41,264 nucleotides of DNA from Escherichia phage 216Ecol046PP: the sequence record PP328844.1. One strand, written 5' to 3'. The translations under genes and the position numbers were made by a program. Under the pieces are notes generated by a model that saw only the letters and a list, made by a program, of their open reading frames with translations, ran no database searches and was not told the DNA's origin. This document shows positions 1 through 41,264 of the stretch, piece by piece (the stretch's first letter is position 1; each line of letters opens with the position of its first letter).

Positions 1-179
1 TCTCACAGTTCAAGAACCTCAAGTCTCCCCATAGGCCCTCTTTAAGTCCAGACCAAAGGCCCTACCCCAGTCTATCATAAGGTTAGACCGATGGTCAAGA
101 CTTCAGGTCAACGATAGGTCTAGGCTATGGCTTAGGGAAGAACGATAGGTGGTGACTATTGGTCTGTCTTTGAGTCTCT
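1..179 (+). repeat. Terminal repeat copy 1 of 4 (179 bp, begins TCTCACAG as in T7)
   Basis: Read as identical to 501..679, 40586..40764 and 41086..41264 by direct comparison. Confidence 0.9.
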
Positions 180-1396: not shown

Positions 1397-1510
1397 TTAC
1401 CACATCGAAACAACGGTGATGACCAACACTGAAATGGTCTACCTGAAGTCCTCTGACTGAAGGGAATGCTCTTTAACAATCTGGATAAACTCTTAATGTG
1501 CGCCGATAGC

Positions 1511-1566
1511 GACTAACTACAGGGCCTTTTAGTCTACATCTGAAGGCCCTGACTGATAGTCACTAA
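1511..1566 (+). promoter_or_regulatory. RNase III-type hairpin (CAGGGCC...GGCCCTG) upstream of the first early ORF
   Basis: Inverted repeat; preceded by CTCTTTAACAATCTGG..CTCTTAATGTGCGC, which resembles the T7 leader upstream of gene 0.3. Confidence 0.5.
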
Positions 1567-1574
1567 CTTAACGG

Positions 1575-1829
1575 ATGGACACTATGAAACACTTAAGCAC
1601 AATCACTAATCGCAATGAAGTATTCGTGAACACTAAAGGTTATGCGTGGATTCAGCTTAAAGAGATGAGAGGAGCGCGTCACCGTGTGGTAGTGCGCAAG
1701 GTATCAAGCAAGCAGTTCAGCAACTACAGCGTCGATACTATGCGTATAGACAACGAGACTTACCTGATAGACTCGCAGATAACCGTGCGTCCTACAGCGG
1801 GCATCTCAGCTCCTTATTTCGCTAACTGA
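1575..1829 (+). CDS. Hypothetical early protein (84 aa), not present at this position in T7
   Basis: ORF track; lies downstream of early promoters and is bracketed by similar hairpins. Confidence 0.5.
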   Translation: MDTMKHLSTITNRNEVFVNTKGYAWIQLKEMRGARHRVVVRKVSSKQFSNYSVDTMRIDNETYLIDSQITVRPTAGISAPYFAN

Positions 1830-1833
1830 GAGT

Positions 1834-1884
1834 GATTAACTACAGGTCGTTAGAATCATAGCGGCCTGACTGATAGTCACTAAC
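1834..1884 (+). promoter_or_regulatory. Second RNase III-type hairpin sharing CCTGACTGATAGTCACTAAC with the 1511..1566 element
   Basis: 20-bp identical segment plus similar TAACTACAGG arm. Confidence 0.45.
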
Positions 1885-1912
1885 ATATAATTAACTTTGA
1901 GAGGATATAACT

Positions 1913-2416
1913 ATGGAACGTAATGCTAACGCATACTATGAGCTGCTGGCTGCAACCGTTGAGGCATTTATCGAGCGTATTCAGTACGACCACCTGACTC
2001 AAGATGATGACTACAGCGATGCGCTGCATGAGGTCGTAGACGGTCAGGTTCCACACTATTACCACGAGATTTTTACGGTGATGGCTGCTGATGGTATAGA
2101 CCACGAGTTCGAAGACTCTGGGATGATGCCTGAAACCAAGGACGTAACGCGTATACTACAAGCTCGCATCTATGAGGCGCTTTATAACGATGTGTCTAAT
2201 AGCTTGGATGTAGTCTGGTTTGAGGATGAAGAGGCAGACGAAGAGGATGAATATTGGGTAGTTGACGCTAAAACAGGCGCAATAATTGTGCAAGCTGTAG
2301 CTCTTGAGGTCGCTACTGCATGTGCCAAGGTCAACTATGCAATAGGTCGCCACCTGAAGGTGGAAGACATCAATGATAACGTAGTGTTCGATCCTGCGGC
2401 TGAGGACTGCGAGTGA
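1913..2416 (+). CDS. ocr: Ocr-like anti-restriction DNA-mimic protein (gp0.3 homologue) with C-terminal extension, 167 aa
   Basis: N-terminal ~110 aa match T7 Ocr ([34 protein letters not shown], acidic tail); about 55 extra C-terminal residues. Confidence 0.85.
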
Positions 2417-2568
2417 TGGTAACTTATGGTATCTGCCAGCACCACGTCGCCAACGCCCGGCTTATGGTCAAGACCGGGCGGTTAACCCATGATGAGACTA
2501 TGCGTCTCCTGAAGGTGGTCTACAAGCGACGCAAGCGTATTCACGACAGTTTGCACGCTGAGTGATAA
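2416..2568 (+). CDS. Small early ORF (50 aa), hypothetical
   Basis: ATG overlaps the Ocr stop (ATGA); basic protein; below the ORF-track cut-off. Confidence 0.3.
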
Positions 2569-2631
2569 ACGAGAGGTCATCTACTGATAGGTGGCCTCAA
2601 AGATTACCACTTACATTAATAGGGGTTAACT

Positions 2632-2721
2632 ATGAGTGTGGGATATTGGGTATGCCTAGCGCCAGTTATCTGGATGATAGGGTATGGGATATACGACTGT
2701 ATTAAACGGAAATCACTATGA
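2632..2721 (+). CDS. Small hydrophobic peptide ORF (29 aa), hypothetical
   Basis: ATG..TGA overlapping the next ORF start; predicted TM-like peptide. Confidence 0.25.
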   Translation: MSVGYWVCLAPVIWMIGYGIYDCIKRKSL

Positions 2722-2915
2722 GTCTTGCACTATTGATAGCCATAGGCTATGGACTTATCGCATACGTGCTTGTGAGAGACATCAACAAAGCGCGTAAAGT
2801 CTACAAATTCAACTATGTACGTCTGGGCCGCTGGACTGTACGTCAACCTAACGGACGATTCATGCGCAACTTAGCGAACGTCTGGGATATAGCAACTATT
2901 GGGAGCAAACTGTAA
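2718..2915 (+). CDS. Hypothetical early membrane protein (65 aa)
   Basis: ORF track; hydrophobic N-terminus; translationally coupled to neighbours. Confidence 0.4.
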   Translation: MSLALLIAIGYGLIAYVLVRDINKARKVYKFNYVRLGRWTVRQPNGRFMRNLANVWDIATIGSKL

Positions 2916-3175
2916 TGAAAACCGTATACATTAACAAACCATCTAGCCATAGCCGTGTAGAGCAAATAGAGCGTGACATGTTCTTACATCGCCGCATGAG
3001 GGCTGAGGGCCATAAGTACGAACTGATGAGTCTGGCGTTTGGTGGACGACCGATCACTGACGATGGTAAACTTTTAGTCTCAGGCTGGAAGGCGATAGAC
3101 CAACGGTCAACCATCAAGCACACGACTCACGGTGACTTCAGCCATCTCCACGCTAACCCACTGATATGCAAGTGA
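2915..3175 (+). CDS. Hypothetical early protein (86 aa)
   Basis: ORF track; sits where T7 has gene 0.7, but is not a kinase. Confidence 0.45.
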   Translation: MKTVYINKPSSHSRVEQIERDMFLHRRMRAEGHKYELMSLAFGGRPITDDGKLLVSGWKAIDQRSTIKHTTHGDFSHLHANPLICK

Positions 3176-3183
3176 TTATGACT

Positions 3184-3203
3184 TAACTATCACTATAGGA
3201 CTC
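3184..3203 (+). promoter_or_regulatory. Phage RNAP promoter (TTAACTATCACTATAGGA) immediately upstream of the RNAP gene
   Basis: Matches the consensus repeated 11 times in the window. Confidence 0.7.
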
Positions 3204-3272
3204 AAGGTCTAAGACTCCAAGTGAAAGACCAAAGAGACTTTAAGTGAAAGACTAATAACAAGGACTTTAAGT

Positions 3273-5954
3273 ATGAGCGTCATCTCTATTGACAAACACG
3301 ACTTCTCTGATGTGTCGAACGCCATTGAGCCGTTTAACCTGCTGGCTGACCACTACGGGCAAGACCTTGCAGTCAAACAGCTTCAGCTTGAGCATGAGGC
3401 CTACACTGAAGGTGAGCGACGTTTCATCAAGAACCTTGAGCGTCAGACCGAGCGAGGGGAACTGGCAGACAATCAGGTCGCCAAGCCTTTGATGCAGACT
3501 CTGGTTCCTAAGATTGCGCAAGCCGTCAAGGAGTGGCACGAAGGTCCAGACGGGAAGCTGTCAACCTCACGTCCGAGCGTAGCGTTCACCATGTTAAGCA
3601 CTGAAGAGAAGGCCGTCAAGGACCGCTCTCTTCGCATCTCCTGCGAGTCTGCTGCGGTTATCATACTGAAGGTCATCCTCTCCAAGCTGGTCAAGCCTGA
3701 AGGTATACCGATTACACCGATGGCCTCCGCGATAGGTCGCACACTTGAGGATGAAATCCGATTCGGTCGCATTCGTGACAAGGAGAAGGAGCACTTCAAG
3801 AAGGCGATAGCTGATAACCTGAACAAGAGAGCCGGGGCATCATACAAGAAAGCCTACATGCAAGCGGTCGAGACATCCATGCTGGAGCAAGGCCAACTAG
3901 AAGATGCGTGGGGAACTTGGAGTCCGACCGAGGCTGTCCACGTTGGAATCAAGATGCTGGAGATTGTCATACAGTCAACACAACTGGTAGAGCTTAAGCG
4001 TTACGGTGCTGGCAATGCAGCGGCTGACGTTGAGATGGTCCACCTGTCAGACTTCTGGGTCAAGAAGATGGCACAACGCGGCTTTAGCCTTGCGGGTATC
4101 GCCCCAGTCTACCAGCCTTGCGTCGTTCCACCTAAGCCGTGGACCGGTGTCGTAGGCGGTGGGTACTGGGCCAAAGGTCGCAGGCCTCTACCACTGATTC
4201 GCTTAGGGTCTAAGTCTGCGGTGGCACGTTACGAAGACGTGTACATGCCTGAAGTCTATGACGCTGTGAATATCATCCAGAATACACCTTGGAGAGTGAA
4301 CAAGAAGGTTCTGGACGTGGTGAACATGGTCGAGAAGTTGAACAACACGCCTATTGATGACATCCCTCAGATGGAGCCACTGAAGCCTGAAGAATATGCG
4401 GGTGAGACTGAAGAGGAACTCAAGGCGTGGAAGAAAGCGGCTGCTGGTATCTATCGCCGCGAGAAGGCCAGACAGTCACGCAGATTGTCGCTGAGCTTTA
4501 TCGTTAACCAAGCGAACAAGTTCTCTCAGTTCAAGGCCATCTGGTTCCCGTACAACATGGACTGGCGCGGTCGCGTCTACGCTGTGCCGATGTTCAACCC
4601 TCAGGGTAACGACATGCAAAAGGGTCTCCTGACTCTGGCAGTCGGTAAGCCTATTGGTGCTGATGGTTTCAAATGGCTGAAGGTCCACGGTGCAAACTGT
4701 GCGGGTGTCGATAAAGTCACCTTCGAGGAGCGCATCAAGTGGGTGGAAGACAACCACGACAACATCATGGCTGCTGCTAAGGCACCGATGGATAGCATTG
4801 AGTGGTGGGGCAAGTTAGACTCTCCTTTCTGCTTCCTTGCGTTCTGCTTCGAGTATGCTGGCGTGATGCACCACGGATTGTCTTACTCCTGCTCGCTGCC
4901 GATAGCTTTCGATGGGTCCTGCTCTGGGATTCAGCACTTCAGCGCTATGCTTCGTGACCACATCGGTGGACATGCAGTAAACCTGACGCCTTCCGGTAAG
5001 GTCCAAGACATCTACCGCATCGTGTCTGACCGCATTGAGGAAGAGCTTAAAGTCCTGCTGGTTAACGGCACTGACAACGAGATGGTAACTCACGAGGACA
5101 AGAAAACTGGTGAGATTACCGAGCGTCTCAAGCTGGGGACACGAGAGCTGGCCCGTCAGTGGCTGACCTACGGTATGTCACGAAAGGTCACTAAGCGCTC
5201 AGTCATGACTCTGGCCTACGGGTCGAAAGAGTACGGATTCGCAGACCAAGTATACGAGGACATCGTGATGCCAGCGATTGACTCAGGGTCTGGCGCTATG
5301 TTCACTGAACCAAGCCAAGCATCTCGCTTCATGGCTAAGATGATTTGGGAAGCTGTGAGTGTGACCGTAGTTGCTGCGGTTGACGCGATGAAATGGCTTC
5401 AGGGTGCTGCCAAGCTGCTGGCGGCTGAAGTGAAGGACAAGAAGACGGGTGAAATCCTGAAGCCTTGCCTTCCGGTACACTGGGTCACACCTGATGGGTT
5501 CCCGGTCTGGCAGGAATACCGCAAGAAGGATACAACTCGTCTGAATCTGATGTTCTTAGGGTCATTCAACCTTCAGCCTACCGTCAACAAAGGCACGAAG
5601 AAAGAGCTGGATAAGCACAAGCAGGAGTCAGGCATTAGCCCGAACTTCGTCCACTCACAAGATGGTAGCCACCTCCGCAAGACTGTAGTCCATACTCACC
5701 GCAAGTATGGCGTGATGTCGTTCGCAGTGATTCACGATAGCTTCGGGACCATCCCGGCTGACGCTGAGTATCTGTTCCGTGGGGTCCGTGAGACTATGGT
5801 AGAGACCTACCGCGACAACGATGTGCTGCTTGACTTCTACGAGCAGTTTGAATACCAGCTTCACGAGAGCCAGCGCAATAAGTTGCCAGAGCTTCCGAAG
5901 AAAGGTAAACTGAATATCGAAGACATCTTGTCTTCAGACTTTGCATTCGCTTAA
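3273..5954 (+). CDS. 1: Single-subunit DNA-dependent RNA polymerase (T7 gene 1 homologue), 893 aa
   Basis: Collinear similarity to T7/T3 RNAP throughout (e.g. WFPYNMDWRGRVYAV, HDSFGT, C-terminal FAFA). Confidence 0.97.
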   Translation: MSVISIDKHDFSDVSNAIEPFNLLADHYGQDLAVKQLQLEHEAYTEGERRFIKNLERQTERGELADNQVAKPLMQTLVPKIAQAVKEWHEGPDGKLSTSRPSVAFTMLSTEEKAVKDRSLRISCESAAVIILKVILSKLVKPEGIPITPMASAIGRTLEDEIRFGRIRDKEKEHFKKAIADNLNKRAGASYKKAYMQAVETSMLEQGQLEDAWGTWSPTEAVHVGIKMLEIVIQSTQLVELKRYGAGNAAADVEMVHLSDFWVKKMAQRGFSLAGIAPVYQPCVVPPKPWTGVVGGGYWAKGRRPLPLIRLGSKSAVARYEDVYMPEVYDAVNIIQNTPWRVNKKVLDVVNMVEKLNNTPIDDIPQMEPLKPEEYAGETEEELKAWKKAAAGIYRREKARQSRRLSLSFIVNQANKFSQFKAIWFPYNMDWRGRVYAVPMFNPQGNDMQKGLLTLAVGKPIGADGFKWLKVHGANCAGVDKVTFEERIKWVEDNHDNIMAAAKAPMDSIEWWGKLDSPFCFLAFCFEYAGVMHHGLSYSCSLPIAFDGSCSGIQHFSAMLRDHIGGHAVNLTPSGKVQDIYRIVSDRIEEELKVLLVNGTDNEMVTHEDKKTGEITERLKLGTRELARQWLTYGMSRKVTKRSVMTLAYGSKEYGFADQVYEDIVMPAIDSGSGAMFTEPSQASRFMAKMIWEAVSVTVVAAVDAMKWLQGAAKLLAAEVKDKKTGEILKPCLPVHWVTPDGFPVWQEYRKKDTTRLNLMFLGSFNLQPTVNKGTKKELDKHKQESGISPNFVHSQDGSHLRKTVVHTHRKYGVMSFAVIHDSFGTIPADAEYLFRGVRETMVETYRDNDVLLDFYEQFEYQLHESQRNKLPELPKKGKLNIEDILSSDFAFA

Positions 5955-7842: not shown

Positions 7843-7852
7843 CTAAATGTCA

Positions 7853-7886
7853 ACCCAGTGGTCTTAGGACTGCTGGGTTTCTTTGC
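7853..7886 (+). terminator. Early intrinsic terminator (TE-like) after the ligase gene
   Basis: Stem ACCCAG...CTGGGT followed by a T-rich run. Confidence 0.5.
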
Positions 7887-8883: not shown

Positions 8884-8970
8884 ACCGAGTGAGTGGTGCC
8901 GGGAGATGTACGAGAAGACTCTCAACCCGGACTACATTACGTTATACAACCAATGGAAGGAGCGTGGTCT

Positions 8971-9129
8971 ATGACTGACGTAGAAAAGAAATACATCGTG
9001 GAGCTTGAGGGTCGCGTTCAGTCATTCGAGGTTCCGGTGTACGCAAAGTCTCTTGAAGAGGCTACCCTGAAGTCCCAAGAGTATGAGGACGCTGGGTTTG
9101 TGGTCGGACGGATTCGTCCTGAGACCTAA
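8971..9129 (+). CDS. 2: gp2-like inhibitor of host RNA polymerase
   Basis: [15 protein letters not shown] and GFVVGRIRP resemble T7 gp2; start could instead be the in-frame ATG at 8953. Confidence 0.75.
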
Positions 9130-40585: not shown

Positions 40586-40764
40586 TCTCACAGTTCAAGA
40601 ACCTCAAGTCTCCCCATAGGCCCTCTTTAAGTCCAGACCAAAGGCCCTACCCCAGTCTATCATAAGGTTAGACCGATGGTCAAGACTTCAGGTCAACGAT
40701 AGGTCTAGGCTATGGCTTAGGGAAGAACGATAGGTGGTGACTATTGGTCTGTCTTTGAGTCTCT
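40586..40764 (+). repeat. Right terminal repeat of the genome unit
   Basis: Identical to 501..679. Confidence 0.9.
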
Positions 40765-41085
40765 ATCTGTATCAGACCTTGAGTCACTACCTACAGTCTA
40801 ACTACCTACAGTCTAACTACCTACAGTCTAACTACCTACAGTCATCGACCATCGGTAATGCTGCTACCTACAGTCTAAACCTACAGTTAATAGACACAAT
40901 GGCTATAGACTTAAGGTCTAAGACATGTTAGTCAAAGACTATATCCTCTTACACCATGGGGCCGACGATAGCTTAATCAATATTATCGACCATCGGTAAT
41001 GCTGCTACCTACAGTCTAAACCTACAGTTAATAGACACAATGGCTATAGACTTAAGGTCTAAGACATGTTAGTCAAAGACTATAT
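40765..41085 (+). repeat. Copy of left-end unique sequence 680..1000 following the right terminal repeat (concatemer-type continuation)
   Basis: Identity to 680..1000 including the 15-bp array and part of the 141-bp duplication. Confidence 0.85.
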
Positions 41086-41264
41086 TCTCACAGTTCAAGA
41101 ACCTCAAGTCTCCCCATAGGCCCTCTTTAAGTCCAGACCAAAGGCCCTACCCCAGTCTATCATAAGGTTAGACCGATGGTCAAGACTTCAGGTCAACGAT
41201 AGGTCTAGGCTATGGCTTAGGGAAGAACGATAGGTGGTGACTATTGGTCTGTCTTTGAGTCTCT
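41086..41264 (+). repeat. Fourth terminal repeat copy, joined to an internal point of the left-end region
   Basis: Identical to the terminal repeat; junction at 41085/41086 breaks collinearity with 1001 onward. Confidence 0.85.

Follow-up and report, generated by a model that had tools for sequence, protein, structure and literature searches.

Early Regions of the Closest Described Phages

The interval between ocr and gene 1 of phage T7 holds genes 0.4, 0.5 and 0.6A/B besides 0.7, and the processing site R0.5 is located between genes 0.4 and 0.5. In phage T3, gp0.6 likewise coexists with gp0.7: genes 0.65 and 0.7, the latter encoding the kinase, come after gene 0.6. Secondary citations describe T7 gp0.4 as an inhibitor of FtsZ (Kiro et al. 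2013, cited in PMC9372555 and PMC4944311), and T7 gp0.6 has been linked to MreB in literature mentioned in PMC9372555. The records of phage K1F (AM084414, DQ111067), annotated in 2005, list 0.3, 0.35, 0.36, 0.37, 0.38 and gene 1, with 0.7 absent; K1F gp0.37 is also labelled "0.6". Dhanoa et al. (2022) demonstrated that K1F infection mislocalises FtsZ, a phenotype as seen with T7 gp0.4, and stated that K1F "lacks the 0.4 genes", the FtsZ factor being given as unknown (PMC9372555); because BLAST found no gp0.4 in K1F, that study concluded that the factor must be a novel peptide. A further arrangement is found in Citrobacter phage CR8 (Caroctavirus), whose early order is 0.3, 0.31, 0.4, 0.7 (242 aa, kinase only), 0.705, 0.71, 0.38, a promoter and gene 1.

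The window analysed here is the whole 41,264-bp stretch of Escherichia phage 216Ecol046PP (PP328844.1), and by sequence it is a complete K1F-like (Kayfunavirus) genome. Megablast of positions 1500-3300 gave 223 phage records, almost all from Kayfunavirus and close relatives; the best matches were the Escherichia phages MirsaeidiM_Esher2 and Pipis, at 98.6-98.7% identity, and K1F was 93% identical. Between ocr, which is 82% identical to K1F gp0.3, and gene 1, whose product is labelled RNA polymerase in the Pipis (98.6% identical) and K1F records, lie four + strand ORFs, referred to as ORF1-ORF4. The features discussed below are as follows.

1826-1885, + strand: RNase III-type hairpin 5' of ocr, R0.3 analogue (MFE -23.9 kcal/mol, z=-3.2)
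1913-2416, + strand: ocr (gene 0.3), 167-aa DNA-mimic anti-restriction protein (Pfam PF08684, E=1.1e-29; phrog_2568, E=1.6e-53)
2416-2565, + strand: ORF1, 49 aa when counted from its ATG and 50 aa with the in-frame GTG (2413) as start, K1F gp0.35 counterpart
2559-2613, + strand: putative RNase III processing site, R0.5 homologue (MFE about -22 kcal/mol, z=-3.2)
2632-2721, + strand: ORF2, small hydrophobic peptide (29 aa, KRKSL tail) that occupies the position of T7 gp0.5 and K1F gp0.36
2718-2915, + strand: ORF3, 65 aa, N-terminal transmembrane helix and basic tail, ATGA overlap with ORF2, K1F gp0.37 counterpart
2915-3175, + strand: ORF4, 86 aa, basic and His-rich, TAATG overlap with ORF3, K1F gp0.38 family
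3183-3200, + strand: phage-RNA-polymerase promoter consensus, past ORF4 and directly 5' of gene 1, where the block ends on the right
3273-5954, + strand: gene 1, T7-type single-subunit RNA polymerase of 893 aa (from the ORF list)
7852-7879, + strand: intrinsic terminator 3' of the ligase gene, TE analogue (stem of 12 bp, then a T-run)
8893-9129: gp2-type host RNA polymerase inhibitor (phrog_1307, E=1.8e-24)

The early region of K1F is the same as that of the window in gene order, in junctions and in having no 0.7, and differs in that a 55-aa hydrophobic gp0.36, to which ORF2 (29 aa) is unrelated, stands in the place of the latter. CR8 and the window have a downstream module in common, namely a small hydrophobic peptide, a protein like T3 gp0.6, gp0.38, a phage promoter and gene 1; unlike the window, CR8 has kept a kinase-domain gene and a T7-type gp0.4. 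Since the kinase-less layout was annotated for K1F as early as 2005, the arrangement is the norm for the genus, and we consider it quite probable that what lies here is the usual set of class I (early) accessory genes of K1F-like phages (Kayfunavirus).

Coding Capacity and Junctions of the Block

Homologues for the selection analysis were taken from K1F, Pipis and 22 IMG/VR loci. All four frames are open across 16-23 related loci, with one exception, in ORF4 (1/23), and third-position changes are in excess in each of them. Their pN/pS values (ORF1, 0.42; ORF2, 0.26; ORF3, 0.34; ORF4, 0.38) are comparable to that of ocr (0.29), which indicates that ORF1-ORF4 are under purifying selection. With open frames, low pN/pS and third-position excess, all four ORFs, the 29-aa ORF2 included, behave as genes, and a plausible Shine-Dalgarno sequence is present ahead of every one of them. 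The small ORFs of the earlier note thus appear to be genuine (pN/pS 0.26-0.42). Its statement that two of the four are hydrophobic agrees with the maximum 19-residue Kyte-Doolittle means of 2.32 for ORF3, at residue 1, and 1.51 for ORF2, the latter value being borderline.

The same note had described the four as translationally coupled through overlapping ATGA junctions. ORFs of 49/50, 29, 65 and 86 aa do lie at the places that it gave, and ORF2/ORF3 is an ATGA junction; ocr/ORF1 is TGATG, with a 1-nt overlap, ORF3/ORF4 is TAATG, and ORF1 and ORF2 do not overlap. A single coupled chain is broken by the 66-nt gap between ORF1 and ORF2, which contains the conserved hairpin at about 2559-2613. 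Because of this spacer and its R0.5-like hairpin, the block is better read as two coupled units, ocr-ORF1 and ORF2-ORF3-ORF4, a split that parallels the T7 messages 0.3-0.4 and 0.5-0.6-0.7.

Putative Processing Sites and Transcription Signals

The hairpin at 2559-2613 is like the T7 0.4/0.5 hairpin and the annotated T3 R0.5 in sequence and in architecture (upper stem, internal loop, lower stem). All related loci keep a hairpin of this type immediately 5' of their small hydrophobic ORF, and its upper stem shows compensatory changes. These features identify 2559-2613 as homologous to R0.5 of T7 and T3, and RNase III cleavage would be expected there from the likeness to both sites. The hairpin ahead of ocr, at 1826-1885, is laid out like the annotated T3 sites, with an upper stem, an internal loop and a lower stem, and a comparable hairpin precedes the gene upstream of ocr. 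An R1 analogue was sought by folding 3170-3275; the fold was no better than shuffled sequence (z=-0.6), and therefore no RNase III site is claimed there.

The promoter consensus at 3183-3200 is one of 10 + strand matches to TTAACTATCACTATAGGA, with 0.04 expected by chance, and the CR44b and CR8 records have a predicted promoter annotated at the same place, 5' of gene 1. Two promoter-like sites (367-396, 1367-1396) bear on the boundaries of the early transcription unit that holds ORF1-ORF4, which the terminator at 7852-7879 would, by analogy, close. By analogy with T7, host RNA polymerase would transcribe the block from left-end promoters into one early transcript ending at the terminator after the ligase gene, and RNase III would cut this transcript at the conserved hairpins. 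The outcome of such cutting would be two translationally coupled messages, ocr-ORF1 and ORF2-ORF3-ORF4.

ORF1 as a Diverged gp0.4

ORF1 is a basic protein (pI 10.3), 90% identical to K1F gp0.35; the start of ORF1 overlaps the ocr stop and is preceded, 9 nt upstream, by a GAGGA Shine-Dalgarno sequence. It matches phrog_5058 (E=6.5e-25), which T7 gp0.4 matches besides its own family (E=9e-5), and matches gp0.4-linked PHROGs weakly (E 0.005-0.1). When the ORF1 family was compared with the gp0.4 family by hhalign, 44 of 49 columns were aligned with E=3.3e-5 and a probability of 72%, whereas negative controls gave E 0.17-0.97. When 7,110 ORFs, taken from both strands of 109 loci, were searched locally, the ORF1 and gp0.4 HMM matches were reciprocal, and every sub-noise match was the small ORF in the corresponding position. 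ORF1 and gp0.4 are linked in a continuum of sequences by an intermediate family, found in loci whose kinases have 334-338 aa, and the ORF1 homologue of CR44b was named "0.4" by its annotators. T7 gp0.4 and ORF1 are alike in their length of about 50 aa, in a start overlapping the ocr stop and in having R0.5 next, and have the motif V-x-YGL...G...M..L...Y..K in common; they differ in that identity is about 30% and ORF1 is strongly basic. Taken at the level of sequence, ORF1 is a diverged protein of the T7 gp0.4 family.

BLAST left the relation between ORF1 and gp0.4 undetected, and this blindness explains why K1F was reported as being without 0.4. As a gp0.4 homologue, ORF1/gp0.35 becomes the prime and obvious candidate for the FtsZ inhibitor of K1F. 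The homology would most likely mean that ORF1 binds FtsZ and blocks host cell division, with the caution that, at about 30% identity and an hhalign probability of 72%, FtsZ binding may not be conserved.

The Hydrophobic Peptide ORF2 and the Predicted Membrane Protein ORF3

Every relative examined encodes some small hydrophobic peptide in the slot next to the R0.5 hairpin, on its 3' side. Its occupants are T7 gp0.5 (47 aa), K1F gp0.36 (55 aa), the 29-aa ORF2 type or a 34-aa type (CR8, CR44b), and some phages have two slot peptides. ORF2 would be the 29-aa membrane peptide filling this slot for small hydrophobic peptides. It was considered as a homologue of gp0.5, gp0.36 or CR8 0.705, and this was rejected, the common features being position and hydrophobicity only; homology was undetected by hhalign (gp0.5, E=0.65; gp0.36, E=0.086; CR8 0.705, E=0.053). 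No homologues of ORF2 were detected beyond close relatives.

It could be argued that ORF2 is not a gene and that 2566-2717 is merely an RNA processing site and the leader of ORF3, given that ORF2 is absent from the annotation of the 98.6% identical Pipis, that K1F has a different 55-aa gene at its place, and that it is very short, with borderline hydrophobicity. The pattern of variation speaks for translation of this frame, which is intact in 16/16 loci at protein identities down to 58%, with differences by codon position of 68/50/167, a strong third-position excess, and its low pN/pS. The overlapping rival frame of 47 aa (2562-2705) lacks this coding signal: it is intact in just 4/7 loci and has no third-position or pN/pS signal. 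A separate Shine-Dalgarno sequence, AGGGG, stands 7 nt ahead of the ORF2 ATG, ORF2 joins ORF3 by the ATGA junction, and gp0.36 and the 29-aa ORF occur together in some relatives (L008, L009). That the stretch is non-coding is thus very unlikely, and ORF2 is retained here as a gene.

ORF3, which is 98% identical to K1F gp0.37, matches phrog_2385 (E=5e-32), as does T3 gp0.6 (E=9.1e-30); the two are 40% identical by BLASTP, with an hhalign probability of 100%. T3 gp0.6 is, like ORF3, a protein of 65 aa with an N-terminal transmembrane helix and a basic C-terminal part, encoded downstream of R0.5, and the N-terminal helix is also recorded, from TMHMM, for the homologues in Pipis and CR8. The two phages diverge after this gene, where T3 has 0.65 and the 0.7 kinase and the window has gp0.38. 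Membership of the T7 gp0.6 family (phrog_8393) was tried and rejected, since the PHROG families differ and hhalign to gp0.6A gave E=0.17. ORF3 is therefore assigned to the T3 gp0.6 family and is, by these comparisons, unrelated to T7 gp0.6A. As such, it would be a single-pass inner-membrane protein. All of its source-named relatives in a large protein search (116/116) are called hypothetical, conserved hypothetical or "phage protein".

ORF4 and the Orphan gp0.38 Family

ORF4 belongs to phrog_7066 (E=1.5e-40), is 88% identical to K1F gp0.38 and has 131 close relatives. Its family lies immediately 5' of gene 1 in 22/22 IMG/VR loci and occurs in 223 phage records, in which the listed features are hypothetical or have uninformative names, e.g., gp0.38. 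The family is narrow, since 1.84 billion proteins contain no more than 12 clusters of it at 50% identity; some members reach 108-139 aa through variable N-terminal extensions, and CR8 gp0.38 (118 aa), which has an internal duplication, is 43% identical to ORF4. No informative sequence match was obtained outside the family, and "gp0.38" was not mentioned in the literature searched. A relation to T3 gp0.65 or T7 gp0.6A was tried and rejected, no relation being found by hhalign (gp0.6A, E=0.38).

An AF2 model built from a diverse alignment has a pLDDT of 79.8, with confident helices at residues 11-30, 34-41 and 49-66; a shallow alignment of near-identical sequences gave a pLDDT of 55.6. In the low-confidence tail, T70, G73, D74, F75, H77 and L78 are invariant and H69 and H79 nearly so. 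ORF4 is thus predicted to be a small basic three-helix protein of the orphan gp0.38 family, carrying an invariant C-terminal T-x2-GDF-x-HL motif. Fold searches retrieved family members or generic helical bundles only. This tail probably serves either for docking to a partner in the host or for holding a metal.

Profile searches and structure prediction, which the earlier note had proposed for ORFs that it held to be of unknown function, place ORF1 in the gp0.4 family and ORF3 in the T3 gp0.6 family and leave ORF4 an orphan, modelled as a three-helix bundle. Nothing informative for ORF1-ORF4 or the hairpins came from Pfam, NCBIfam, PADLOC, PDB sequence profiles and Rfam, and the literature search found no expression data on these genes and no K1F early transcriptome or proteome.

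Absence of gp0.7 and the Question of a Substitute

The earlier note had stated that the window has no gp0.7 kinase, and this proved correct. When the T7 and T3 gp0.7 sequences were compared by tblastn with the whole 41,264-bp window, the best match had E=1.2, and hence no kinase is present in it. Recognisable kinase motifs, named beforehand as evidence against the statement, were not found on closer analysis by tblastn and profile comparison; no ORF of the interval matches the kinase domain features (GxGHF loop, IKVGFKK, DPV motif).

From this absence the note had gone on to propose that a cluster of host-takeover or anti-defence candidates stands in the interval instead of 0.7. That these are early genes is borne out. 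That they form a new cluster replacing gp0.7 and supplying host shut-off or anti-defence is a further step, to which several observations lend some appeal: gp0.7 is missing from the window; ORF4 lies exactly at the position of the C-terminal shut-off domain of T7 gp0.7, just 5' of gene 1; ORF4 is basic and helical, resembling the basic helix described for that domain; and the T7 kinase is a broad anti-defence factor (PMC13645617), so that a kinase-less phage might need substitutes. The same genes are nevertheless found in company with the kinase. Homologues or positional counterparts of ORF1, ORF2 and ORF3 coexist with gp0.7 in T7 and T3, which makes the three the counterparts of T7/T3 0.4, 0.5 and 0.6 and not replacements of 0.7. 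The ORF4 family and a gp0.7 kinase-domain gene stand together in CR8 and in 8/22 IMG/VR relatives, where the gp0.7 homologues have 242-255 aa and all catalytic motifs, lack the shut-off domain, and lie upstream of the module of hairpin, hydrophobic peptide, gp0.6-like gene and gp0.38. As the kinase-only gp0.7 coexists with this same module, the module is independent of the kinase. None of ORF1-ORF4 matched a PHROG kinase or shut-off family, and the ORF4 family compared with 83 gp0.7 sequences gave hhalign probabilities below 1%. Host RNA polymerase shut-off, moreover, is still covered after the loss of gp0.7, because the gp2-type inhibitor is retained. Replacement is accordingly unlikely.

A related possibility is that ORF4 is itself a decayed gp0.7, either its N-terminal part as far as the glycine loop or the shut-off domain on its own. 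By eye, the long variants of the ORF4 family start MNMSNLVHAMDSIISL, as against MNITDIMNAIDAIKAL in T7 gp0.7, and GDFSHLHANPLI looks like GHFSAAYSHPLL; the CR8-like kinase genes, furthermore, are without the shut-off domain while ORF4 adjoins gene 1. These resemblances did not survive comparison. Profile-profile alignment of the ORF4 family with any part of gp0.7 gave E 0.15-0.25 at probabilities below 1%; against full-length gp0.7, hhalign aligned only to residues 188-227, again below 1%, which does not identify ORF4 with the shut-off domain. An ORF4-family profile search of 1.84 billion proteins retrieved zero kinases. Genomic position alone is common to ORF4 and the two-domain gp0.7 (kinase and C-terminal shut-off domain) of T7 and T3, with no similarity in sequence, profile or motif, and the purifying selection on ORF4 (pN/pS 0.38), together with its own invariant motif, argues that it is not a decaying fragment. 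The remnant idea was rejected on the hhalign comparison with the 83 gp0.7 sequences and the large profile search, and we regard it as extremely improbable. ORF4 is part of a conserved module made up of the R0.5 hairpin, a small membrane peptide, a gp0.6-like membrane protein and gp0.38.

Implications for Kayfunaviruses

The block as such was already known, being the long-annotated norm of K1F-like phages. Three modest points are new: ORF1/gp0.35 is recognised, from profile comparison, as a cryptic gp0.4 homologue; the unannotated 29-aa gene ORF2 receives evolutionary support from the pattern of substitutions; and the orphan gp0.38 family gains a structural sketch, in the form of a model, and a signature motif. 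A more ambitious, joint reading holds both that ORF1/gp0.35 is the factor by which K1F mislocalises FtsZ and makes its host filament, and that ORF4 is a new host-takeover or anti-defence effector acting via its T-x2-GDF-x-HL tail, perhaps by docking to a partner protein, perhaps by metal binding through H69, D74, H77 and H79. We put this forward tentatively, its chance of holding in full being appreciable and somewhat short of even.

For the genus as a whole, lacking the kinase is normal, and it is no peculiarity of this genome. This bears on the present view of the T7 kinase as a weapon against a broad range of defences (PMC13645617). Kayfunaviruses do without the kinase when they infect clinical E. 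coli rich in defences, and hence other counter-defence or takeover functions may reasonably be sought among their conserved early orphans, with ORF4/gp0.38 and the two membrane peptides as the main candidates. The most directly testable outcome is ORF1 as the candidate FtsZ inhibitor of K1F.

Accessory genes in the early block of relatives

In relatives of the phage, the early block was found to carry additional ORFs at two places. Between the homologues of ORF1 (K1F gp0.35/gp0.4 family) and ORF2 (a small hydrophobic peptide), a conserved 41-aa ORF (MYQITYSSEQAFYDGCYEMMKRGACYV...) and a 115-aa ORF are both variably present, and therefore this interval is a hotspot of accessory-gene gain and loss. 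An ORF of 140-144 aa lies between the homologues of ORF3 (T3 gp0.6 family) and ORF4 (K1F gp0.38 family) in four related loci, L018, L019, L023, and L025, where it breaks the ORF3/ORF4 coupling. This inserted ORF bears the signature CxxC...DHxH...LLCxxCN, and it looks like a homing endonuclease, because "endonuclease VII" is annotated at its place in the record of phage IMM-002.

Additional ORFs in the early block of related loci
L011 1616-1741, L012 1690-1815, L014 1814-1939, L019 2030-2155, L021 1213-1338: ORF between the ORF1 and ORF2 homologues
L018 2579-3001, L019 2507-2932, L023 2567-3001, L025 2579-3001: inserted 140-144-aa ORF

Kinase homologues and annotation discrepancies

A gp0.7 homologue of 242-255 aa was found in the IMG/VR loci L018, L020-L023, L025, and L027, and in CR8 (L109; 1875-2603). 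These homologues consist of the kinase domain only, the C-terminal shut-off domain being absent, and they are located upstream of 0.5/0.6-like genes, whereas T7 gp0.7 directly adjoins gene 1. In LT594300 (LM33_P1) and MZ398247 (IME177), the 49-aa ORF1 homologue is itself labelled "protein kinase", which appears to be an annotation error transferred via gene order. The two K1F records also disagree: the gp0.38 ORF is annotated with 86 aa in AM084414 (2208-2468), but in DQ111067 (2271-2468) it is open for 65 aa only and carries no annotation, a mismatch that probably reflects a sequencing difference.

Ocr and the left end of the window

The ocr of the window (1913-2416) has 167 aa, and that of K1F has 169 aa; in contrast, T7 ocr has 117 aa, and several relatives have similarly short proteins of 110-114 aa. 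In the window, ocr extends at its C-terminus roughly 50 aa past the Pfam ocr domain (residues 8-94).

Duplications were detected at the left end (1-1401), and their offsets are suspiciously round.

Repeats at the left end of the window
1-179 = 501-679: repeat pair, spacing 500
180-401 = 1180-1401: repeat pair, spacing 1000
759-899 = 900-1040: tandem repeat, 141 nt

Across 1-1401 and 40586-41264, the start of the terminal repeat was found at 1, 501, 40586, and 41086. The left-end duplications are probably an assembly or record artefact added to a true direct terminal repeat, which would account for the genome being ~1 kb longer than those of relatives.

Promoter upstream of gene 1

Directly upstream of the polymerase gene lies one further feature:
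3183-3200: phage-polymerase promoter, full consensus

A predicted promoter is annotated at the matching site in CR44b and CR8, whereas the T7 and T3 records have no annotated phage promoter directly upstream of gene 1. With the promoter at 3183-3200, a positive feedback loop on gene 1 would be possible.
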